Positions 3,860 through 25,857 of a stretch of DNA of 31,269 bases are shown here, in pieces (position 1 is the first letter of the stretch; each line of letters starts with the position of its first letter). The translations under genes and the position numbers were made by a program. A model generated the notes under the pieces. It had not been told where the DNA came from. It did not search any database and worked only from the letters and a program-made list of their open reading frames with translations. The DNA is from a virus (taxonomy: Duplodnaviria; Heunggongvirae; Uroviricota; Caudoviricetes), in IMG/VR virus record IMGVR_UViG_2651869696_000013; one strand, written 5' to 3'.

Positions 3860-6134
3860 AGCCTCCGGGCGTTTTGTCCCTCCGTCAGCATTTGCCGCAG
3901 GCACCGGTAAGGCGTTTACCGGTGCTTATGCATGGAACGCGCCACGCGAGGCCGTCGGGCGCGAAAGACCCCTTACACGTGACGAGATGCGTCAGGTGCA
4001 AGGTGTTTTATCCACGATTAACCGCCTGCCTTACTTTTTGCGCTCGCTGTTTACTTCACGCTATGACTACATCCGGCGCAATAAAAGCCCGGTGCACGGG
4101 TTTTATTTCCTCACATCCACTTTTCAGCGTCGTTTATGGCCGCGCATTGAGCGCGTGAATCAGCGCCATGAAATGAACACCGACGCGTCGTTGCTGTTTC
4201 TGGCAGAGCGCGACCAGTATGCGCGCCTGCCGGGGATGAATGACAAGGAGCTGAAAAAGTTTGCCGCCCGTATCTCATCACAGCTTTTCATGATGTATGA
4301 GGAACTCTGCGATGCCTGGGTGGATGCGCATGGCGAGAAAGAATCGCTGTTTACGGATGAGGCGCAGGCTCACCTCTATGGTCATGTTGCTGGCGCTGCA
4401 CGTGCTTTCAATATTTCCCCTCTCTACTGGAAAAAATACCGTAAAGGACAGATGACCACGAGGCAGGCATATTCTGCCATTGCCCGCCTGTTTAACGATG
4501 AGTGGTGGACTCATCAGCTTAAAGGCCAGCGTATGCGCTGGCATGAGGCGTTACTGATTGCTGTCGGGGAGGTCAATAAAGACCGTTCTCCTTATGCCAG
4601 TAAACATGCCATTCGTGATGTGCGTGCGCGCCGCCAGGCAAATCTGGAGTTTCTTAAATCGTGTGACCTTGAGAACAGGGAAACCGGCGAGCGCATCGAC
4701 CTTATCAGTAAGGTGATGGGCAGTATTTCTAATCCTGAAATTCGCCGGATGGAGCTGATGAACACCATTGCCGGTATTGAGCGTTACGCCGCTGCAGAGG
4801 GTGATGTGGGGATGTTTATCACGCTGACCGCGCCGTCAAAGTATCACCCGACACGTCAGGTCGGAAAAGGCGAAAGTAAAACCGTGCAGCTTAATCACGG
4901 CTGGAATGATGAGGCATTTAATCCAAAGGATGCGCAGCGTTATCTCTGCCGTATCTGGAGCCTGATGCGCACGGCATTCAAGGATAATGATTTACAGGTC
5001 TACGGTTTGCGTGTCGTCGAGCCACACCACGACGGAACTCCGCACTGGCATATGATGCTTTTTTGTAATCCACGCCAGCGTAACCAGATTATTGAAATCA
5101 TGCGTCGCTACGCGCTCAAAGAGGATGGAGACGAAAGAGGAGCCGCGCGAAACCGTTTTCAGGCAAAACACCTTAATCGGGGCGGTGCTGCGGGGTATAT
5201 CGCGAAATACATCTCAAAAAACATCGACGGCTATGCACTGGATGGTCAGCTCGATAACGATACTGGCAGGCCGCTGAAAGATACTGCTGCGGCTGTTACC
5301 GCATGGGCGTCAACGTGGCGCATTCCGCAATTTAAAACGGTTGGTCTGCCGACAATGGGGGCTTACCGTGAACTACGCAAATTGCCTCGCGGTGTCAGCA
5401 TTGCTGATGAGTTTGACGAGCGCGTCGAGGCTGCACGCGCCGCTGCAGACAGTGGTGATTTTGCGTTGTATATCAGCGCGCAGGGCGGGGCAAATGTCCC
5501 GCGCGATTGTCAGACTGTCAGGGTCGCCCGTAGCCCGTCGGATGACGTTAACGAGTACGAGGAAGAAGTCGAGAGAGTGGTCGGCATTTACGCGCCGCAT
5601 CTCGGCGCGCGTCATATTCATATCACCAGAACGACGGACTGGCGCATTGTGCCGAAAGTTCCGGTCGTTGAGCCTTTGACTTTAAAAAGCGGCATCGCCG
5701 CGCCTCGGAGTCCTGTCAATAACTGTGGAAAGCTCAACGGTGGTGATACTTCGTTACCGGCTCCCACACCTTCTGAGCACGCCGCAGCCGTGCTTAATCT
5801 GGTTGATGACGGTGTTATTGAATGGAATGAAACTGAGGTCGTGAGGGCGCTCAGGGGCGCATTAAAACACGACCTGCGAACGCCAAACCGTCAGCAAAGA
5901 AACGGAAGCCCGTTAAAACCGCATGAAATTGCACCATCTGCCAGACTGATCCGGTCGGAACGATTGCAAATCACCCGTATCCGCGTTGACCTTGCTCAGA
6001 ACGGTATCAGGCCGCAGCGATGGGAGCTTGAGGCGCTGGCGCGTGGCGCGACCGTAAATTATGACGGGAAAAAATTCACGTATCCGGTCGCTGATGAATG
6101 GCCGGGATTCTCAACAGTAATGGAGTGGACATGA
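3849..6134 (+). CDS. A: rolling-circle replication initiator endonuclease gpA
   Basis: 761-aa product from ATG 3849 (MAVKASGRF...); HUH-like PHWHMMLF and paired tyrosines in GYIAKYISKN typical of the P2 A nickase. Confidence 0.92.
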   Translation: MAVKASGRFVPPSAFAAGTGKAFTGAYAWNAPREAVGRERPLTRDEMRQVQGVLSTINRLPYFLRSLFTSRYDYIRRNKSPVHGFYFLTSTFQRRLWPRIERVNQRHEMNTDASLLFLAERDQYARLPGMNDKELKKFAARISSQLFMMYEELCDAWVDAHGEKESLFTDEAQAHLYGHVAGAARAFNISPLYWKKYRKGQMTTRQAYSAIARLFNDEWWTHQLKGQRMRWHEALLIAVGEVNKDRSPYASKHAIRDVRARRQANLEFLKSCDLENRETGERIDLISKVMGSISNPEIRRMELMNTIAGIERYAAAEGDVGMFITLTAPSKYHPTRQVGKGESKTVQLNHGWNDEAFNPKDAQRYLCRIWSLMRTAFKDNDLQVYGLRVVEPHHDGTPHWHMMLFCNPRQRNQIIEIMRRYALKEDGDERGAARNRFQAKHLNRGGAAGYIAKYISKNIDGYALDGQLDNDTGRPLKDTAAAVTAWASTWRIPQFKTVGLPTMGAYRELRKLPRGVSIADEFDERVEAARAAADSGDFALYISAQGGANVPRDCQTVRVARSPSDDVNEYEEEVERVVGIYAPHLGARHIHITRTTDWRIVPKVPVVEPLTLKSGIAAPRSPVNNCGKLNGGDTSLPAPTPSEHAAAVLNLVDDGVIEWNETEVVRALRGALKHDLRTPNRQQRNGSPLKPHEIAPSARLIRSERLQITRIRVDLAQNGIRPQRWELEALARGATVNYDGKKFTYPVADEWPGFSTVMEWT

Positions 6135-6586
6135 TGGCAAAAATTCACGAGGTAAAGCTGCACGCAAAATATTTCGACCTTGTGCTGGAAGGAAAGAAAC
6201 GCGCAGAGTTTCGGAAAAATGACCGTAATTATGAGCGCGGGGACACGTTGATTTTGCATGAATGGGTGCAGGGTGTGTATACGGGGCGAAAGGTTGAAGC
6301 CCGGATAACAGATGTTACTGACCTGTCAGACTGGCTGGAAGATTATGTCTTGCTAAGTATTGAGCTGCTTAATACAGGTGCATATGAGATTGTGAACTGG
6401 AAAGAACTTAGTGAGCGTGGTCTGGTATTCAGAATTAATCATGAAATTATGCATCAGCTCGGCCTTGCTGTTATGTATGAACCAGAGACGGGGATGTCTG
6501 GCGGGGCAATGGTTGCCACGGATGGAGCATGGAACTATTCAGATGAACAGATGGAGCGTGCACAGCAAAACGGGTGGCTTGGATAA
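6131..6586 (+). CDS. ASCH/DUF3850-like domain protein
   Basis: ATG overlaps the A stop; N-terminal EVKLHAKYFDLVLEGKKRAEFRKNDRNYERGDTLILHEW resembles the ASCH (PUA-like) fold signature; call is by recalled similarity. Confidence 0.6.
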   Translation: MMAKIHEVKLHAKYFDLVLEGKKRAEFRKNDRNYERGDTLILHEWVQGVYTGRKVEARITDVTDLSDWLEDYVLLSIELLNTGAYEIVNWKELSERGLVFRINHEIMHQLGLAVMYEPETGMSGGAMVATDGAWNYSDEQMERAQQNGWLG

Positions 6587-6938: not shown

Positions 6939-7021
6939 ACAACTTACAAATATTCAAAAGTAAGCTTCCTGTTGCTAACATAAGATCGATTTTTTATGTG
7001 GATGATGCAAAAAGGATAGCT

Positions 7022-7753
7022 ATGGATATTGTAATCGCTTTTCTATCACTCGCTTTTTTCGTTGCTTTTTTCATCGGGTTAATCAAGCCATCACTGGTGC
7101 GGATGCCAAACCGTAAACGTGCAAGTGCGGTTTATCTCGGAGGTGGTTTTGCATTGAGCATAATTGGTTCAATACTCTACCCAACAGAAAAAAGCCAGCC
7201 AGTTGCTAAAACTGAAACAGCAACCGTAGCAGAACATCAGGCTCAAAAAACATTCGAATATACTGAAAAAACACTCAAGGAATATCGGAACGAGCCAAAG
7301 AAGACTCGACACGATATTGTGAATAGTTACATTAACTTTAAGAAAGTGCCAGTCACCGCATCAGATGCATTTTATGCTTGCATGAGTGAGTATACATTTA
7401 CCAAAGATGATGAGTTGAAACTCGGTGATGTTCTTGGATGGTGCTTTAATGATTATGAAAATGACCCGAATTCACTAAACAATAAAATCAATCTTGATAC
7501 ATTTCAGAGCAATTTTAGTGGTTGGGATGGTTCTTATCGTCCATTGGAAAAACTAATTAAGGATAATATGAACGATGATTCATCTTATAAACATGTGTCA
7601 ACGGTATATCATTTGGTTTTGAATAAAGACCCGCACGCCATTGTGAAAACCACATTTCGTGGCACTAATGCTTATGGAGGAGTAGTTAAACAGACTATTG
7701 CTGCGCGTGTCGACATCCGAACGGGCGAAGTCGTTTCAGTATTAGATAACTAA
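7022..7753 (+). CDS. cargo membrane protein: two N-terminal TM helices plus ~170-aa soluble domain; function unknown
   Basis: ATG 7022 with AAGGA 6 nt upstream (track start 6998 is GTG); hydrophobic stretches IVIAFLSLAFFVAFFIGLI and AVYLGGGFALSIIGSILY; AT-rich. Confidence 0.7.
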   Translation: MDIVIAFLSLAFFVAFFIGLIKPSLVRMPNRKRASAVYLGGGFALSIIGSILYPTEKSQPVAKTETATVAEHQAQKTFEYTEKTLKEYRNEPKKTRHDIVNSYINFKKVPVTASDAFYACMSEYTFTKDDELKLGDVLGWCFNDYENDPNSLNNKINLDTFQSNFSGWDGSYRPLEKLIKDNMNDDSSYKHVSTVYHLVLNKDPHAIVKTTFRGTNAYGGVVKQTIAARVDIRTGEVVSVLDN

Positions 7754-7788
7754 TCGTTGATGCCGTATTGATACTTGTTATACTAGTG

Positions 7789-7818
7789 GTGGAACGAGAC
7801 TGCAATAGTCTGTTCCAC
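7789..7818 (+). other. stem-loop between the two cargo genes
   Basis: GTGGAACGAGACT-GCAAT-AGTCTGTTCCAC, about 12 bp stem with one bulge; no downstream U-tract, so not a classic intrinsic terminator. Confidence 0.3.
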
Positions 7819-7895
7819 AACAGGAGTAATTACCTTGACTGTAAGTTGCTTTTATTGAGGGAACTATGAAGTTTAAGACTGAATTGAGTTGAAAA

Positions 7896-9155
7896 TTGCA
7901 TGACTCGGTAGTGTTTGATTTGAAAAAAGACCTGGTAAAATTAGAGGGAAACCTAAAAAATACAGATTTGTTGTTGTCGTTTCAGTTCAAAATAATAAGG
8001 AATATAATTAGAAGTGAAAGGATGATCAAAGGATTAAAGTCTTTCTTAGGGGAACTAAAGGCAACAAAAAGAAAAGGTGGTTTAAAAAAAGAACAATCTA
8101 AACTTATTAAGGAAAATATTAAGAGTGTTGAGCAGGCTATTGATGATGTGAAATTTAAAATATATATCTTCAAAATGTTTGGTGATAGTGTTGCTTTTTT
8201 GTATTTGGATAAGTTTGATATTAAGCATTTTTTCTATAATGTTGTGGATTACAGTCCCAAGGAGTCAGCGGGCTATATGGGAGGGAAGGATGGCTTAAAA
8301 GAAGAATGGGAATTGGTGAAGAAGGCCTGCAAGGCTGGTGTTCCTACGTTACTCAATGATATTACAATGAGTATGAGGCATGGTGATGTTTGTTTACTTG
8401 GTGAAGGTGCACCAGTACTGGTGGAGGTGAAATCAAGTCAAAATAAAAATGATCGTGTTGAACGTCAAAAAAATAACCTTAATAGACTGGCTGGATTTTT
8501 AGCAGAAGATAAAGCTGAAGATTTTAGAGGGATGCCATTAGTGTTAAGGAAAGAACTGTGTTTTTCAGAAGTTACATATAAAAAAGAATTTAATGAGCAT
8601 CTGAATGTATGCAGGAAAAAAGGAATTTCATGGGTAAGGCTAGAAGATGGATTTTATGTGGTATCTAATCGTGGCTGTGATCTGGATATAGCATTATCAC
8701 AGTTGGATCTTAGAGGGAGGGAAATTGCACCTATATTTTTGAATGAATATAAAAATAATCAGTTGTGGGTTCCTTTAACTCCATTTGTTAATCTTATAAA
8801 TGATGCGCGTGATTTGTGTGACTTTATAAATGGGGAGTTAACTATTCTCTGTGTTCTTGATTTGGATTGTTTTAAACAAATAGCTTTGAATGAAGGGTTT
8901 GAGCTTGTTTTTGTCGATGGTGAAGACTATTCGATGATATTTAAAGAATTAGGTAGCTCATTGATTTGGGGTGTGTCATGGCAAATGATGCTTCGCACTC
9001 CTTTAGAAATGGTGTCAATGTCTTGGTTAATTAAAGATTCAATTGATAGATTTAAACGTTTACAAAAGCAACATGCTGAGATGCAGCCTGCCACTGATGT
9101 TAATACATCCGAAACCTCCTTGTTTGAAAAATATAGGCCTCTTTTTACAAAGTAG
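7896..9155 (+). CDS. cargo protein with PD-(D/E)xK-like nuclease signature; function unknown
   Basis: Long ORF in AT-rich DNA; track start is TTG 7896, first ATG is 8022, so start is uncertain; motif GDVCLLGEGAPVLVEVK (D164 ... E177-V-K179, nt 8385-8432); no Walker A motif seen. Confidence 0.7.
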   Translation: MHDSVVFDLKKDLVKLEGNLKNTDLLLSFQFKIIRNIIRSERMIKGLKSFLGELKATKRKGGLKKEQSKLIKENIKSVEQAIDDVKFKIYIFKMFGDSVAFLYLDKFDIKHFFYNVVDYSPKESAGYMGGKDGLKEEWELVKKACKAGVPTLLNDITMSMRHGDVCLLGEGAPVLVEVKSSQNKNDRVERQKNNLNRLAGFLAEDKAEDFRGMPLVLRKELCFSEVTYKKEFNEHLNVCRKKGISWVRLEDGFYVVSNRGCDLDIALSQLDLRGREIAPIFLNEYKNNQLWVPLTPFVNLINDARDLCDFINGELTILCVLDLDCFKQIALNEGFELVFVDGEDYSMIFKELGSSLIWGVSWQMMLRTPLEMVSMSWLIKDSIDRFKRLQKQHAEMQPATDVNTSETSLFEKYRPLFTK

Positions 9156-17228: not shown

Positions 17229-17641
17229 TGATTGTGCTGGTCGTATTGTTATCACTGGCGGTGGCGGGGCTGTTTCTGGCGAAGCATGAAAACGCCAGCC
17301 TGCGCGCCTCGCTGGACAGGGCGAACAACGTCGCCAGCGGGCAGCAGACGACCATCACCATGCTGAAAAATCAGCTTCATGTTGCCCTCACCAGGGCAGA
17401 CAAAAACGAGCTGGCGCAGGTGGCACTGCGTCAGGAACTGGAGAACGCCGCGAAGCGTGAAGCACAGCGCGAGAAAACCATCACGAGGTTACTGAATGAA
17501 AACGAAGATTTTCGCCGCTGGTACGGTGCTGACCTGCCTGATGCTGTGCGCCGGTTGCACCAGCGTCCGGCCTGCACCGACGCCAGTGATTGTCGCCAAC
17601 GCCTGCCCGAAAGTGAGTCTTTGCCCGATGCCGGGCAGTGA
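17216..17641 (+). CDS. lysB: LysB, Rz-like inner-membrane spanin
   Basis: 141 aa, N-terminal TM then coiled-coil-like region; position as P2 lysB. Confidence 0.8.
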   Translation: MSKLMIVLVVLLSLAVAGLFLAKHENASLRASLDRANNVASGQQTTITMLKNQLHVALTRADKNELAQVALRQELENAAKREAQREKTITRLLNENEDFRRWYGADLPDAVRRLHQRPACTDASDCRQRLPESESLPDAGQ

Positions 17642-20620: not shown

Positions 20621-21224
20621 TTCGCGACTGCTGCCGACCGGCTCATCACCGCTTGAGGTCGCCGCCGCAAAAGCCTGTGCGGAAATTGAAAAAACGCCGG
20701 TCAGTATTCGTGAGCTGTGGAACCCGGATACCTGTCCGGCAAATCTGCTGCCGTGGCTGGCGTGGTCATTTTCGGTCGACAGGTGGGATGATAAATGGCC
20801 GGAAGCGACCAAACGCGCTGTTATCCGCGATGCGTATTTCATTCACTGCCATAAGGGCACTATAGGCGCAATCCGGCGTGTGGTGGAGCCGCTCGGCTAT
20901 CTGATTGAGGTGAGGGAGTGGTGGCAACTCAATGAGGAGCCGGGGACGTTCCGCATCGTTGTTGGCGTGCTTGAGCAGGGTATTACCGAGGAAATGTATC
21001 AGGAGCTGGAGCGTCTCGTTGCTGATGCAAAACCTGCAAGCCGCCATCTGACGGGACTGGCTATCAGTTTAAGTACAACCGGCAACATTTTTGCCGGTGC
21101 GGGATGCTATCACGGCGACGCCCTGACTGTTTATCCCTACACCCCGGAGGCCATTATTGTCGGAGGGGATTATTTCCCGGCCTCGGCCATTCATTTAATT
21201 GATAACCTAAGAGTAAACGCATGA
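20613..21224 (+). CDS. I: baseplate protein gpI
   Basis: 203 aa, GGAGG RBS; position and sequence as P2 I, but longer than recalled for P2. Confidence 0.85.
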
Positions 21225-22399
21225 CAGTGAAATACTACGCCATTCTGACTAATCAGGGCGCGGCACGGCTGGCTAACGCGACGATGCTCGGCAGTAAGCT
21301 GAATCTGACGCAAATGGCCGTTGGTGATGCGAATGGTGTCTTGCCGACACCAGATCCGGCACAGACAAAACTGATTAACCAGAAACACATCGCGCCGCTG
21401 AATCTTCTGAGTGTTGACCCGAACAACCAGAGCCAGATTATTGCGGAGCAAATCATCCCTGAGAACGAGGGCGGATTCTGGATCCGTGAGATAGGTCTTT
21501 ATGATGATGAAGGCGTACTCATTGCGGTGGCGAACTGCCCGGAAACGTACAAACCGCAGTTACAGGAAGGCAGTGGTCGTACCCAGACCATCCGTATGAT
21601 TCTGGTTGTCACGAATACCGAAGCCATCACGCTGAAAATCGACCCGTCGGTGGTACTGGCGACCCGTAAATACGTGGATGATAAAGTCCTGGAATTAAAG
21701 CTGTATGTGGATGACCAGATGAGAAACCACATTGTTGCACAGGATCCTCATACCCAGTATGCGCAGAAACATAATCCGACATTTACCGGAGAACCAAAAG
21801 CGCCGACGCCTGCTGCAGGAAATAACACCACGCGGATTGCGACCACTGCGTTTGTACAGGCCGCTATTACCGCTCTGATTAACGGCGCGCCAGCCACGCT
21901 GGACACACTGAAAGAAATTGCCGCAGCCATTAACAATGACCCGAAATTCAGTACCACCATTAACAATGCGCTGTCAGGTAAGCAGCCACTGGATGAGACG
22001 CTGACTCATTTGAGTGGGAAGGATGTTGCCGGTCTTCTTGCATACCTTGGTTTGGGAGAAGCGGCAAAACGGAATGTAGGGACAGGGGCGAATCAGATAC
22101 CTGATATGGGTAGCTTCACGCTTTCTGTTTCAGGTACTGGATATCAAAAATTACCATCAGGTTTTATTCTTCAGTGGGGCTCAATCGGCGCACCAGGCAT
22201 TGCACAGGATGTAGTAACCCATTTCCCGATTGCATTTCCAAACAGATGTCTGCGTGTTTTGGTCTCACAAGACTACACACCAGATAGCGGGGCTGTTGGT
22301 TATATTGCCTGTGCAGGTTTTAGTCCCGACCCGGTTAAATTTATATCCAGAGCCAGTACTCCTGGCCTCGGCGCTTCATTTTTAGCGTTAGGCTGTTAA
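21221..22399 (+). CDS. H: tail fibre protein gpH (P2-like N-terminus, invertible C-terminal module)
   Basis: N-terminus [20 protein letters not shown]... is P2 H-like; only 392 aa, and the part after the crossover site at about 22047 lies inside the invertible segment. Confidence 0.88.
22035..22060 (+). repeat. left recombination (hix/gix-like) site of the invertible segment
   Basis: TTCTTGCATACC-TT-GGTTTGGGAGAA; the 15-mer TTGGTTTGGGAGAAG (22047-22061) recurs inverted at 23932-23946; resembles the 26-bp hixL site as recalled. Confidence 0.6.
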
Positions 22400-22420
22400 T
22401 TTAGCTATATGGAGTGAAAA

Positions 22421-22861
22421 ATGAATTACATATATTCCGCGACTACAAACTCTTTCTATCCGCTGGAGATGAAAGAGGATTACACTCAAGCTGACTCATG
22501 GCCAGATGATGCTGTTGAAGTTGATGAGCAAGTGTATATTGCGTTTTCCGGATTACCGCCGAAAGGAAAAATCCGTATCGCTGGAGAAAATGGTTTTCCT
22601 GCATGGTCTGAAATTCCACCACCAACACATGAGGAACAGATTGCTGCAGCCGAACAGGAAAAGCAGCAACTGATTAATCAGGCCAACGTTTATATGAACA
22701 GTAAACAATGGCCTGGTAAAGCGGCTATTGGTCGTCTGAAAGGTGAGGAACTGGCGCAATATAATTTGTGGCTGGATTATCTGGACGCACTGGAACTGGT
22801 CGATACTTCCGGTGCGCCAGATATTGAATGGCCTACGCCTCCGGCAGTTCAGGCCAGATGA
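22421..22861 (+). CDS. G: tail fibre assembly chaperone gpG (current orientation)
   Basis: 146 aa; C-terminus ...DTSGAPDIEWPTPPA is paralogous to the G' C-terminus. Confidence 0.8.
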   Translation: MNYIYSATTNSFYPLEMKEDYTQADSWPDDAVEVDEQVYIAFSGLPPKGKIRIAGENGFPAWSEIPPPTHEEQIAAAEQEKQQLINQANVYMNSKQWPGKAAIGRLKGEELAQYNLWLDYLDALELVDTSGAPDIEWPTPPAVQAR

Positions 22862-23435
22862 CATCCGGCGCGGTGCTGGTATCTGTTGCCGTCACCGCGT
22901 CAATGTAATCCAGCACAGCGTTAAGTCGGGTGTTTTCTGTCTGCATCAGCTTCCGCCCGGCCTGCAATTTCAGTTGAATCAGACTAATGGAAGCCATTGC
23001 AGTATCAATCAGTGACTGACGCTGTGCTTCTGCCGCGCCTACTGCGGCGCTATGCTGTGCCTCAGTATCGGTCACCCATTTCTCACCATCCCATTTATCG
23101 TATGGCGTTAACGGTGCGAGAGTGGTTGTTTTTTCGGGATAGTCGCCTGGTGCTGTGATTTCTTTGGCATCTCCCGTTTCGGTGTTATAGACAATTTCAC
23201 CGCGATGGTCTGGCACATATTCCCATGAGTTAAAATCTGCTGAGCGGCAGATAGCATAACCAGCTTTATGTGTAACTGGCGCATCTAAACAAGAACATGC
23301 CGGGATACCGACGCCAACAGCAAGATATTCAGTTGATGTAGAAATATATTCCCGCGTTTCACCATCATAATTATAAACGGTAATATCTCCCGCCTTTGTG
23401 GCGATGAGTTCCTTATTTAATATAGCTTTATCCAT
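22833..23435 (-). CDS. alternative tail fibre assembly chaperone (G')
   Basis: 200 aa; C-terminus ...TDTSTAPDVIWPELPEA; convergent with G, overlapping at the 3' ends. Confidence 0.75.
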   Translation of the reverse strand: MDKAILNKELIATKAGDITVYNYDGETREYISTSTEYLAVGVGIPACSCLDAPVTHKAGYAICRSADFNSWEYVPDHRGEIVYNTETGDAKEITAPGDYPEKTTTLAPLTPYDKWDGEKWVTDTEAQHSAAVGAAEAQRQSLIDTAMASISLIQLKLQAGRKLMQTENTRLNAVLDYIDAVTATDTSTAPDVIWPELPEA

Positions 23436-23946
23436 CAGGCAGCCCTCACGATATAATTAAAGGCAATGTTACGGGGTCGATTTTCGTTTGCAGTTGGAAC
23501 AATTCTTGAAGCATCAAGGCCAATCACTTTTGGGTAAACAGCGCCGTCTGCTCTTTCTGTCACCATACTTCTGGTTAAGGAGAAATAACTATTGTTTGTA
23601 GAGGGACTCAATGGCACTATGGCCCCCTTAAACGAGCCTGCTGTTTCCCATATTGAATAATTTTCAGTGTTTACAGTTCTGAACTCACCATAGATATTAC
23701 GTATGGCATCGCCCTGAGCTGATAATATTGTTCTCCCCGCATCCGCACTACGCCCATCATCCCAGCCACGAATAAATTCACCGCGTAAATCAGGCAATTT
23801 ATTTGTCGGGTAAGCCTTTGCCAGTTCCGGGTATTCTTCAGCAGAAAAAGCTGCTCCGTTGCATTTCAGCCAGCCTGTTGGCGGAGTGGCTGAGGGCCAC
23901 GGAACAGGCACCCCAACCGGTAATGCAGAGCCTTCTCCCAAACCAA
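23435..23946 (-). CDS. promoterless alternative tail-fibre C-terminal cassette (H')
   Basis: In frame across the crossover site (..NVGLGEGSAL..); tail-collar-like motif GWLKCNGAAFSAEEYPELAKAY...LPDLRGEFIRGWDDGR; expressed only after inversion fuses it to the H N-terminus. Confidence 0.7.
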
Positions 23947-23958
23947 CGTTTATGAAAA
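23933..23958 (-). repeat. right recombination (hix/gix-like) site of the invertible segment
   Basis: Reverse complement reads TTTTCATAAACG-TT-GGTTTGGGAGAA; same right half-site as the left site. Confidence 0.6.
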
Positions 23959-24013
23959 TGCAGAGATAATGGCTAACTGGCATCATCCCCGGTTTTTATT
24001 CAGGGGATTGATC

Positions 24014-24607
24014 ATGCTTATTGGCTATGTACGCGTGTCAACAAATGACCAGAACACCGATTTGCAACGTAGTGCGCTGAACTGCGCGGGATGTGAGCGG
24101 ATTTTTGAGGATAAAATCAGCGGCACTAAGTCCGACAGACCGGGGCTGAAAAAACTGCTCAGGACACTATCGGCAGGAGACACGCTGGTAGTCTGGAAGC
24201 TGGACAGGCTGGGGCGTAGTATGCGGCATCTGGTCATTCTGGTTGAGGAGCTGCGCGAACGCGGCGTTAATTTTCGCAGCCTGACAGATGCTATTGATAC
24301 CAGCACGCCGATGGGGCGTTTTTTCTTTCATGTGATGGGTGCCCTGGCTGAAATGGAGCGAGAACTCATTGTCGAGCGGACACGCGCCGGACTGGAAGCG
24401 GCCAGAGCCAAAGGGCGTATTGGTGGCAGACGTCCGAAGCTCACCGCGAGTGAGTGGGAACAGGCAGGACGGTTGCTGGCTGCGGGTGAATCACGTCAAC
24501 GCGTGGCGCTGATTTTTGATATTGGCCTGTCCACGCTCTATAAAAAATTCCCCTCATCAGCGGCAAAGAATAAATTGTGTCATCCCTTAGCCAACCGGGA
24601 CAAATAG
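24014..24607 (+). CDS. serine DNA invertase (Hin/Gin/Cin/Pin family)
   Basis: Start at ATG 24014: MLIGYVRVSTNDQNTDLQ (catalytic Ser motif); C-terminal HTH ...GRIGGRRPKLT...VALIFDIGLSTLYKKF typical of the family. Confidence 0.9.
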   Translation: MLIGYVRVSTNDQNTDLQRSALNCAGCERIFEDKISGTKSDRPGLKKLLRTLSAGDTLVVWKLDRLGRSMRHLVILVEELRERGVNFRSLTDAIDTSTPMGRFFFHVMGALAEMERELIVERTRAGLEAARAKGRIGGRRPKLTASEWEQAGRLLAAGESRQRVALIFDIGLSTLYKKFPSSAAKNKLCHPLANRDK

Positions 24608-24666
24608 CCTGACATCTCCGGCACAACTGAAAATAACACTCACCCATTAACCACGGAGTTAAACGG

Positions 24667-25857
24667 ATGAGTGACTATCATCACGGCGTGCAGGTGCTGG
24701 AGATTAACGACGGCACCCGCGTCATTTCCACCGTATCCACCGCCATTGTTGGCATGGTCTGCACGGCCAGCGATGCGGATGCGGAAACCTTCCCCGTCAA
24801 TAAACCGGTGCTGATCACCAATGTGCAGAGCGCGATTGCAAAGGCCGGTAAAAAAGGCACGCTGGCGGCATCGTTGCAGGCCATCGCTGACCAGTCAAAA
24901 CCGGTCACCGTTGTCGTGCGCGTGGAAGACGGCACCGGCGACGACGAAGAAACGAAACTCGCGCAGACCGTTTCCAATATCATCGGCACCACTGACGAAA
25001 ACGGTCAGTACACCGGACTGAAAGCCCTGCTGGCGGCGGAGTCGGTAACCGGTGTTAAACCGCGTATTCTCGGTGTGCCGGGACTGGATACCAAAGAGGT
25101 GGCTGTTGCACTGGCATCCGTCTGTCAGAAGCTGCGCGCTTTCGGGTATATCAGCGCATGGGGCTGTAAAACCATTTCCGAGGTGAAAGCCTACCGTCAG
25201 AATTTCAGCCAGCGTGAGCTGATGGTCATCTGGCCGGATTTCCTCGCATGGGATACGGTTGCCAGTACCACCGCCACCGCGTATGCCACCGCCCGTGCGC
25301 TGGGTCTGCGTGCCAAAATCGACCAGGAGCAGGGCTGGCATAAAACGCTGTCCAACGTCGGGGTGAACGGTGTTACCGGCATCAGCGCCTCTGTATTCTG
25401 GGATTTGCAGGAGTCCGGCACCGATGCTGACCTGCTTAACGAGTCAGGCATCACAACGCTGATTCGCCGCGACGGTTTCCGCTTCTGGGGTAACCGTACC
25501 TGCTCCGATGACCCGCTGTTCCTCTTTGAAAACTACACCCGCACCGCGCAGGTGCTGGCCGACACGATGGCTGAGGCGCACATGTGGGCGGTGGACAAGC
25601 CCATCACCGCAACGCTGATTCGCGACATCGTTGACGGCATCAATGCCAAATTCCGTGAGCTGAAAACAAACGGCTATATCGTGGATGCGACCTGCTGGTT
25701 CAGCGAAGAATCCAACGATGCGGAAACCCTCAAGGCCGGAAAACTGTATATCGACTACGACTATACCCCGGTGCCTCCTCTTGAAAACCTGACCCTGCGC
25801 CAGCGTATTACCGATAAATACCTGGCAAATCTGGTCACCTCGGTTAACAGCAATTAA
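24667..25857 (+). CDS. FI: tail sheath protein gpFI
   Basis: 396 aa, P2 FI-like. Confidence 0.93.
   Translation: MSDYHHGVQVLEINDGTRVISTVSTAIVGMVCTASDADAETFPVNKPVLITNVQSAIAKAGKKGTLAASLQAIADQSKPVTVVVRVEDGTGDDEETKLAQTVSNIIGTTDENGQYTGLKALLAAESVTGVKPRILGVPGLDTKEVAVALASVCQKLRAFGYISAWGCKTISEVKAYRQNFSQRELMVIWPDFLAWDTVASTTATAYATARALGLRAKIDQEQGWHKTLSNVGVNGVTGISASVFWDLQESGTDADLLNESGITTLIRRDGFRFWGNRTCSDDPLFLFENYTRTAQVLADTMAEAHMWAVDKPITATLIRDIVDGINAKFRELKTNGYIVDATCWFSEESNDAETLKAGKLYIDYDYTPVPPLENLTLRQRITDKYLANLVTSVNSN

Follow-up and report, generated by a model that had tools for sequence, protein, structure and literature searches.

A probable two-state inversion switch of the Pin/Gin type for the tail-fibre tip of a P2-like prophage

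Gene content of the locus

The DNA analysed here, hereafter the window, is a 31,269-nucleotide stretch from a virus of the class Caudoviricetes (IMG/VR record IMGVR_UViG_2651869696_000013) with a P2-like backbone. The P2 gene order V-W-J-I-H-G ... FI-FII-E-T-U-D is kept, Phage_GPA and P2-type integrase domains are present, gpI is 82% identical to P2 I, and the window is 96-97% identical to the Peduovirus phages S164, pro483 and P24A7b over 77-84% of 25 kb. Given its full P2-like set, namely integrase, gpA, a capsid/terminase block and tail genes, the element appears to be a complete phage, not a tailocin. Two AT-rich cargo genes returned no match in PADLOC, Pfam, NCBIfam or PDB. The sequence-only reading of this DNA had held that canonical P2 has no tail-fibre switch, and the reference P2 genome (NC_001895) indeed carries fun(Z) between G and FI, without an invertase. 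In the window, the region from H to the start of the FI operon holds the following features.

21221-22046, + strand: constant N-terminal part of the tail fibre H (about residues 1-275), not included in the invertible segment
22035-22060: left crossover site, TTCTTGCATACC-TT-GGTTTGGGAGAA, within H
22048-23945: invertible segment, about 1.9 kb, between the core dinucleotides
22049-22399, + strand: variable C-terminus of H, expressed, 113 aa (Pfam Gp53-like_C, E=5.5e-14)
22421-22861, + strand: chaperone G, 146 aa, partner of the expressed tip (Pfam Caudo_TAP, E=9e-38)
22833-23435, - strand: chaperone G', 200 aa, silent in the present orientation (Pfam Caudo_TAP, E=1.5e-30)
23435-23944, - strand: alternative C-terminus of H, silent, with 166 aa beyond the junction (Pfam Collar, E=1.1e-15)
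23933-23958: right crossover site, TTCTCCCAAACC-AA-CGTTTATGAAAA
23975-23994, + strand: stem-loop followed by a T run, a terminator-like match lying after the right site and before the invertase gene
24014-24607, + strand: serine DNA invertase, 197 aa, outside the segment (Pfam Resolvase, 2.5e-52; HTH_7, 1.1e-12)
24032-24103: predicted recombinational enhancer, in the 5' end of the invertase gene
24035-24049 and 24084-24098: candidate Fis sites (G-N13-C), GTGTCAACAAATGAC and GCGCGGGATGTGAGC
24570-24643, + strand: P2 late promoter pF region of the FI operon, from activator site to transcription start, overlapping the last ~12 invertase codons

The module thus has the layout of an invertible cassette, in which a constant N-terminus lies outside the segment and two opposed, in-frame C-termini, each followed by its own chaperone gene, lie inside it. 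Residues 1-150 of H form the Pfam Phage_tail_fib N-terminal domain (E=9e-63), and the N-terminus is 42% identical to that of P2 gpH; residues 184-257 are 74% identical to P1 S, and the constant part is 98% identical to H of E. coli prophages. The expressed gp53-like tip falls in PHROG tail-fibre and virion structural families and shares 99-100% identity with the form expressed by E. coli prophages, and its chaperone G is 59% identical to e14 TfaP.

On the opposite strand, G' converges on G with a 29-bp overlap and is 90% identical to e14 TfaE, which is also the RefSeq name for its homologues (tfaE). The stop codon of the silent cassette overlaps the start of G', and at its other end, at the junction, the cassette has no start codon; the sequence-only reading had called this minus-strand reading frame promoterless. 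Its product, described from the letters as tail-collar-like, matches PHROG tail collar fibre families (E=4e-75) in addition to Pfam Collar, and is 93% identical to the C-terminus of an expressed 445-aa H in E. coli WP8-S18-CRE-02 (L002). With a Caudo_TAP chaperone in each cassette, the gene content fits the anticipated exchange of G for G'. None of the five genes of the module contains a stop or frameshift.

Crossover sites and in-frame exchange

The two sites share a 15-bp repeat, TTGGTTTGGGAGAAG, which the sequence-only reading had located correctly and which occurs as perfect inverted copies at 22047-22061 (+) and 23932-23946 (-). A scan of the whole 31-kb window found no third copy with up to 2 mismatches, and shuffled sequence gave a mean of 0.03 chance matches. 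A repeat search extended the match to 18 nt at 94% (22044-22061 and 23932-23949). The crossover sites therefore exceed chance expectation and are unique within the window.

We described each 26-bp site as a 12-bp half-site, a 2-bp core and a second 12-bp half-site. Since the left site has TT and the right site AA at the centre, AA is the core dinucleotide of both when they are read in inverted orientation, and the central TT of the left site (22047-22048) is the expected point of exchange. Two inverted 26-bp sites with imperfect half-sites and the same core were thus found, which is the layout of the Din family. The right site is identical at 26 of 26 positions to the pinE-adjacent site of e14 in E. 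coli K-12, and is also identical to sites of pro483, GPEC1210 and MS 198-1. The left site matches the e14 left site at 22/26 positions, P1 cixR at 20/26 and Salmonella hix at 18/26. Its resemblance to hixL, pointed out previously, amounts to 18-19/26, so that the e14 sites are closer. The hixL sequence used for this comparison gave no match in a literature search, and an exact scan of genomes placed it 61 bp upstream of hin-fljB in Salmonella. Overall, the window sites agree with gix, cix and hix at 16-20 of 26 positions and share their half-site and core layout. A shufflon-like, multi-state switch using a third site was also considered and rejected: a degenerate pattern allowing up to 3 mismatches detected two sites only in the 31 kb, which therefore points to a simple two-state switch.

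Inverting 22048-23945 in silico leaves H open, at 445 aa compared with 392 aa at present, and the new junction reads in frame, with ...AYLGLGE before it and GSALPVG... after it. This is the outcome expected from repeats in the same codon phase, as had been claimed, and the variable parts exchanged are 113 aa (present) and 166 aa (alternative), where ~113 and ~165 had been estimated.

The invertase and its control region

An intact serine invertase gene directly follows the segment, as the sequence-only reading had stated, and encodes a 197-aa protein with a resolvase catalytic domain and a C-terminal helix-turn-helix, the organization of a small serine recombinase, for which about 185-200 aa is usual. 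It most likely starts at ATG 24014 rather than at the first ATG of the open reading frame (23969), because the former gives the N-terminus MLIGYVRVST, as in Gin, Cin and Pin, and has AGGGGA 9 nt upstream. Residues 1-184 match the Mu Gin structures 3UJ3/4M6F (E=1e-94), and identities are 87% to PinE, 77% to Mu Gin, 77% to P1 Cin and 66% to Hin. NCBIfam has no specific model for the protein and gave only sub-threshold matches to other serine recombinases. The segment YVRVS9TNDQ is identical to that of Gin, and Ser9, Arg7, Asp64, Arg65 and Arg68 occupy invariant columns in an alignment of seven invertases. Ser9, which acts in Gin-type catalysis (PMC3575834), is intact, and the catalytic serine was where an inactivating mutation was to be sought as a check on the switch. 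Residue 114 is the wild-type Met rather than the Fis-independent M114V (PMC3575834), the sole and indirect sign bearing on the dependence on host Fis and negative supercoiling that marks the Din family. The C-terminus is 13 aa longer than that of PinE, runs into P2 pF promoter DNA and also differs from those of Gin and Cin; the same extension is present in the invertases, 97-98% identical, of prophages that differ from one another only by exact inversion.

Within the control region, a simple scan passed no sigma-70-like promoter for the invertase. The stem-loop at 23975-23994, TGGCATCAT...TTTTA, has conserved counterparts upstream of pinE and gin, and may serve as a stop for read-through from the late V operon. 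Enhancers of the Din family consist of two Fis sites that act in cis, in the 5' end of the invertase gene and about 100 bp from one crossover site. The predicted enhancer in the window is the positional homologue of the annotated P1 cin enhancer (NC_005856 31678-31749), with 55/72 positions identical, although this conservation is not independent evidence because the region is also coding. The candidate Fis sites occur at the gene positions of the 15-mers of pinE and gin; in cin only the second 15-mer is G-N13-C, and those of hin sit one codon further along. The first candidate is centred 97 bp from the right core, and the second has a G+C-rich centre. The window switch is predicted to depend on Fis and on the enhancer.

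Downstream, the 114 bp at window positions 24587-24700 form an ungapped alignment with P2 17572-17685 that contains 2 mismatches, and the P2 annotation places the pF activator site at 17555-17583 and the transcription start at 17626-17628. Because the invertase gene ends inside the pF activator site and a conserved stem-loop precedes its start, late activation by an Ogr-type activator might be linked to expression of the invertase; one such link would be that the fibre orientation becomes frozen when late transcription starts. Independently of this, the pairing of this gp53-like tip with this Collar tip might recognise receptors so far unassigned to any P2-like phage. We regard these suggestions as unlikely.

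Homologues seen in both orientations

Counting E. coli genomes in which an arrangement covered at least 80% of the query, we found the window arrangement in 48 and the flipped arrangement in 63, figures that count the arrangement and not an identical element because the Collar tips differ. The possibility that the flipped genomes carry the same cassette pair as the window was rejected, since their gp53-like tip is 99-100% identical to that of the window but their Collar tip only 54-57%.

Two natural pairs provide a direct view of the rearrangement. Over 11.4 kb, GPEC1210 and GPEC1209 differ by nothing but an exact inversion (100% identity, 0 mismatches), and the same holds for the chromosome and plasmid records of MS 198-1, again over 11.4 kb and with 0 mismatches. 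In both pairs the inversion ends fall inside the 15-bp repeat. For MS 198-1, both sites are identical to those of the window over the compared junction stretches, which cover each 26-bp site, and the invertase is 98% identical. The window Collar tip is 54-57% identical to that of the GPEC and MS 198-1 pairs (and 93% to L002), so that these pairs are homologues and not the same element. Each of these genomes has 5-7 matching places, and the flipping enzyme in the pairs could consequently be any of several related invertases; across E. coli genomes, the number of matching loci has a median of 2 and a maximum of 12. Switching is thus real in near-identical homologues, and the window copy is a single sequence in which one orientation is visible.

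Comparison with known inversion systems

The novelty implied by the sequence-only reading did not hold, as P2-like phages bearing the switch are numerous and have been described before; the same system is present in pro483 and in hundreds of RefSeq prophages. In place of its label of a Hin/Gin-type switch, "Pin/Gin-type" is the better name because the sites are nearer to those of e14 and the invertase is nearer to PinE and to Gin and Cin than to Hin.

Beyond the site and protein identities given above, the P segment of e14 (stfP-tfaP / tfaE-stfE / pinE) has the same gene order as the window module, a similar size (~1.8-1.9 kb) and the same 29-bp overlap between convergent chaperone genes, and its inversion has been confirmed by sequencing and PCR (PMC4272514). 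However, e14 is a defective remnant of the lambdoid type whose stfE is a pseudogene, whereas the window module belongs to an apparently complete P2-like prophage and is fused to a P2-type H N-terminus.

P2-like loci with the switch include prophages of EPEC E2348/69, Escherichia phage pro483, the "P2" of O157:H43 T22 and RefSeq prophages, all with the same backbone, the same position between I/H and FI, and a gene annotated as "DNA invertase". Of a 3.4-kb query, pro483 matches 79% at 91.7% identity, and E. coli prophages match 92-95% at 94-96%. Inversion has been shown by sequencing and PCR in the EPEC P2-like prophages (PMC4272514), and an invertase with inversion of adjacent genes has been reported in the P2 Z/fun hotspot (bioRxiv 10.1101/2024.10.15.618418). 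The window differs from these other loci in its tip pairing, a gp53-like tip with an L002-like Collar tip, and has two sites only, whereas in one EPEC locus three repeats give four states.

The Mu G / Gin and P1 C / Cin systems likewise keep a constant fibre N-terminus outside the segment and two C-termini with their own chaperones inside it, with the invertase outside beside one site and an enhancer, annotated for P1 and predicted for the window, in the 5' end of its gene. The Mu gene order S-U / U'-S' / gin matches that of the window, and the Mu and P1 sites agree with those of the window at 16-20/26 positions. In contrast, the Mu and P1 segments are longer (3 kb and 4.2 kb, against ~1.9 kb), the Mu core dinucleotide is GA rather than AA, the fibre tips are unrelated in sequence to those of the window, and the phage backbone is different. 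Salmonella enterica Hin belongs to the same family, uses AA-core 26-bp sites (18-20/26) and has an enhancer in the 5' end of its gene at the positions predicted for the window, save for the one-codon shift of its 15-mers. Unlike the window invertase, which lies outside the segment and exchanges coding sequence, Hin lies inside its own segment and flips a flagellin-gene promoter. Together, these precedents make the window switch an ordinary one, being common, annotated and shown experimentally in E. coli prophages.

Proposed mechanism and alternative explanations

We interpret the module, with high confidence, as a two-state inversion switch of the Pin/Gin type (Din family) that sets the receptor-binding end of the tail fibre in a P2-like (Peduovirus) prophage. 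By analogy with Hin and Gin (PMC3798978, PMC3575834), invertase dimers would bind both 26-bp sites with the assistance of host Fis on the enhancer in the 5' end of the invertase gene, Ser9 would cut both sites at the central AA/TT, and rotation of one subunit pair by 180 degrees followed by religation would invert 22048-23945. Expression would be confined to whichever cassette is fused to the constant portion of H and so lies downstream of the late V-operon promoter, giving the 392-aa H with the gp53-like tip together with G in the present orientation, and the 445-aa H with the Collar tip together with the TfaE-like G' in the flipped one. It would follow from such expression in two orientations that a lysogen population produces a mixture of two virion types, probably with different receptors. 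All parts of the window copy are intact; it is probably active, and the two tips probably confer different host ranges, as the analogy with Mu and P1 suggests.

Very unlikely, in our assessment, is that the module is a fossil whose parts were inherited from an active ancestor and which no longer inverts, whether because the invertase is unexpressed, the enhancer degraded or the 13-aa extension harmful. The lack of a promoter-like site in the simple scan, the G+C-rich centre of the second candidate Fis site and an invertase C-terminus that reads into P2 promoter DNA, unlike PinE, Gin and Cin, would all fit such a decay. Yet the five genes are open throughout, the catalytic-residue columns are invariant, and the same extension is found on nearly identical invertases in prophages that differ only by exact inversion. 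In addition, the two orientations are about equally common (48 and 63 genomes), which argues for ongoing switching in the lineage.

It is extremely improbable that the orientations seen in databases reflect homologous recombination between the inverted repeats, or assembly artefacts, rather than the invertase. The orientation differences do derive from assemblies, and one pair consists of chromosome and "plasmid" records of a single assembly, which may reflect the assembler's handling of a mixed population. However, such a mixed read population would itself be evidence of switching, the shared repeat is just 15-18 bp, below the useful length for RecA-dependent recombination, and the break-points fall at sites that are identical to the one defined by experiment in e14. 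Moreover, PCR-confirmed coexisting orientations have been published for e14 and for P2-like prophages (PMC4272514).

Equally hard to credit is a working switch that benefits the host instead, with the invertase acting in trans on e14 or other prophages, or the prophage having been domesticated into a tailocin that has two killing spectra. Din invertases can complement each other, many E. coli genomes hold several matching loci (median 2, up to 12), and a tail-fibre inversion in carotovoricin Er alters its killing range, according to the title of a reference cited in PMC4272514, but the window has a full P2-like set ~97% identical to the isolated phages S164 and pro483, and action in trans would add to a tail-fibre switch rather than replace it.

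Implications for P2-like prophages

As the mechanism, the enzyme family and the occurrence in P2-like prophages are all established, the discovery value of the Pin/Gin-type switch in the window is small, and its significance lies in how such prophages are read. H has two products in these elements, one of which is invisible to gene callers, and the silent half of H appears in annotations as an independent "phage tail protein" or "hypothetical protein". Host-range prediction from a single assembly consequently sees one of two receptor-binding tips, and assemblies of the same strain may legitimately differ by inversion of the segment. The anatomy of the switch is therefore useful for practical phage work as well as for annotation.

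Two tail-fibre cassettes are exchangeable in frame in silico

The tail-fibre gene H and its chaperone G are followed by a second, convergent cassette of opposite strand and then by a serine invertase gene, the two cassettes being bounded by inverted 26-bp crossover sites.

Features of the inversion module
21221-22399, plus: tail-fibre gene H, 392 aa; Pfam Phage_tail_fib N-terminus (9e-63), Gp53-like_C at residues 310-392 (5.5e-14)
22035-22060: left crossover site, TTCTTGCATACC-TT-GGTTTGGGAGAA, laid out as a classical invertase site
22421-22861, plus: chaperone G, 146 aa; Caudo_TAP (9e-38)
22833-23435, minus: chaperone G', 200 aa; Caudo_TAP (1.5e-30), 90% identical to e14 TfaE
23435-23944, minus: silent H C-terminus; Collar domain (1.1e-15), strong matches to PHROG tail collar fibre
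23933-23958: right crossover site, TTCTCCCAAACC-AA-CGTTTATGAAAA, laid out as a classical invertase site
24014-24607, plus: invertase, 197 aa; Resolvase and HTH_7

The silent reading frame traverses the right site and lacks a start codon at the junction. When 22048-23945 was inverted in silico, H residue 279 (...AYLGLGE) became fused in frame to GSALPVG..., yielding an H of 445 aa that ends in a stop overlapping the G' start. Inversion thus trades 113 residues of H for 166 and G for G', in agreement with the sequence-only reading (~113 for ~165). The convergent G and G' genes have 29 bp in common at their 3' ends (22833-22861), as do tfaP and tfaE of e14 and the E. coli homologues. An imperfect 18-nt inverted repeat (22771-22788 and 22897-22914) also lies inside the 3' parts of G and G', where their C-terminal regions are alike (WLDYLDA and VLDYIDA).

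Crossover sites

The 15-bp inverted repeat TTGGTTTGGGAGAAG, which had been correctly placed and described from the sequence alone, occurs once per strand, at 22047-22061 (plus) and 23932-23946 (minus), and can be extended to 18 nt at 94%. No further copy was found in the 31-kb window with up to 2 mismatches allowed, dinucleotide-preserving shuffles gave a mean of 0.03 matches, and a degenerate site pattern returned no copies in the window beyond the left and right sites. In inverted reading, the central dinucleotide is AA at both sites.

The annotated Mu, P1, and E. coli K-12 records supplied the reference sites. The right site is identical to the e14 site by pinE (26/26), and the left site matches the e14 site within ycfK at 22/26. 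Matches to Mu gix were 17/26 (right) and 16/26 (left); for P1 cix, the right site scored 19/26 against both cixL and cixR, and the left site 17/26 (cixL) and 20/26 (cixR). An exact genome scan for the hixL sequence gave one match, in Salmonella enterica, lying 61 bp before a hin homologue that is followed by a flagellin gene. With 18/26 matches to Salmonella hix at the left site (20/26 at the right), the resemblance to hixL claimed earlier holds.

Invertase and predicted enhancer

Mu Gin crystal-structure sequences match invertase residues 1-184 (E=1e-94), and identity is highest to PinE of e14 (87%), followed by Gin and Cin (77% each) and Hin (66%). The catalytic serine S9, through which Gin makes its phosphoserine link (PMC3575834), is present in the motif YVRVSTNDQ, and the residues surrounding the active site fall in invariant columns among seven aligned invertases. 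The enzyme should require Fis, as wild-type enzymes do, because residue 114 is Met, unlike in the Fis-independent M114V mutant of Gin used for crystallography (PMC3575834). Its likely start is not the first ATG of the longest ORF but ATG 24014 further downstream, which aligns with the gin, cin, and pinE starts. Between the right site and this start lies a stem-loop with a T run (23975-23994). The sequence in which it sits is conserved ahead of pinE and gin, and the structure could halt late-operon read-through into the invertase gene.

The annotated P1 enhancer spans nt 19-90 of cin, and the same gene positions in the window (24032-24103) are identical to it at 55/72; since this DNA also encodes protein, its conservation does not by itself prove an enhancer. 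G-N13-C 15-mers, candidate Fis sites, occur at nt 22-36 and 71-85 of the invertase gene; at matching positions pinE and gin have both and cin only the second, while those of hin lie one codon later. The centre of the first 15-mer is 97 bp from the right-site core, close to the ~100 bp described for Hin (PMC3798978).

Both orientations occur in relatives

The window is a single sequence in which one orientation is visible, and evidence for flipping thus comes from relatives. Coverage of a 3.4-kb query reached 80% or more in 48 complete E. coli genomes for the window's arrangement and in 63 for the in silico flipped one. A query of 800 bp spanning the flipped left junction gave a single uninterrupted match at about 95% in 72 records. 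Two pairs of records are the most informative. In the first, the isolates GPEC1210 and GPEC1209 are identical over 11.4 kb save for one exactly reverse-complemented segment (0 mismatches). The same holds (11.4 kb, 0 mismatches) for the P2-like prophage of E. coli MS 198-1, carried in opposite switch orientations on the chromosome (NZ_CP146687.1) and on the 66.8-kb record "plasmid unnamed2" (NZ_CP146689.1). Inversion end-points in both pairs fall within the 15-bp repeat. In MS 198-1, both sites equal the window's over the compared junction stretches, which include each 26-bp site, and the invertase is 98% identical. Another invertase could have acted in trans in these pairs, because those genomes hold several related loci. 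Plasmid records of 210-216 kb also match P2-like tail-fibre modules; these and the 66.8-kb record may represent true prophages on plasmids, excised phage DNA or products of assembly.

The Collar tips of the GPEC and MS 198-1 pairs are only 54-57% identical to that of the window, which is itself 93% identical to the C-terminus of the expressed 445-aa H of another prophage, that of E. coli WP8-S18-CRE-02. Judging from these identities, tips have evidently been reassorted among prophages.

The module in its P2-like backbone

The window is a P2-like prophage, with an integrase, gpA, a capsid/terminase block and the gene runs V-W-J-I-H-G and FI-FII-E-T-U-D. Peduovirus phages S164, pro483, and P24A7b are 96-97% identical to it over 77-84% of 25 kb, and numerous E. 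coli prophages align with it at about 97%. Reference P2 lacks an invertase and has fun(Z) in the interval from G to FI, in line with the earlier statement that canonical P2 lacks the switch. Similarity to P2 at the nucleotide level begins again at about 24574-24587. Only 2 positions differ between window 24587-24700 and P2 17572-17685, a stretch containing the annotated activator site and transcription start of pF. The stop codon of the invertase is thus located within P2 promoter DNA, with the last ~12 codons and stop (24570-24607) in the pF activator-binding-site region, and the right-hand junction between module and P2 backbone thus falls inside the invertase ORF. Because the gene end reads into promoter DNA, the enzyme has a 13-residue C-terminal extension relative to PinE, which every P2-like homologue examined shares.

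Elsewhere in the window, an AT-rich stretch at about 7200-9000 (within 6998-9155; GC 0.34-0.38 vs about 0.55 for the backbone) separates gpA from the portal/terminase block, where P2 is known to have a cargo hotspot. This region contains two ORFs:
6998-7753: 251 aa, phrog_3403, PHROG family of unknown function
7896-9155: 419 aa, phrog_14906, PHROG family of unknown function
Neither matched Pfam, PADLOC, NCBIfam, or PDB sequences, and related phages label them hypothetical or "Orf97"; both are candidate cargo or defence genes. A 162-aa ORF (6098-6586) with DUF3850/ASCH and DUF7415 domains overlaps the end of gpA.

A known type of switch

The gene order of the module is that of e14 (stfP-tfaP / tfaE-stfE / pinE) and Mu (S-U / U'-S' / gin). 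The module also occurs, with a DNA invertase annotation, in phage pro483 and in a "P2" of O157:H43. Whole-genome sequencing has detected inversions in two EPEC P2-like prophages (Goldberg et al. 2014, PMC4272514), where coexisting variants of a four-state locus were validated by PCR and read as tail-fibre switching. According to a 2024 preprint (bioRxiv 10.1101/2024.10.15.618418), a DNA invertase is frequent in the Z/fun hotspot of P2-like phages, together with inversion of the genes next to it, and the mechanism of the Hin and Gin family is well worked out (PMC3798978, PMC3575834). For the switch, first labelled Hin/Gin-type, Pin/Gin-type is the better description by site and invertase identity. 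Taken together, the inversion sites and genes observed in the window are real, their reading as an invertible tail-fibre switch is supported, and this type of switch is already known and common.
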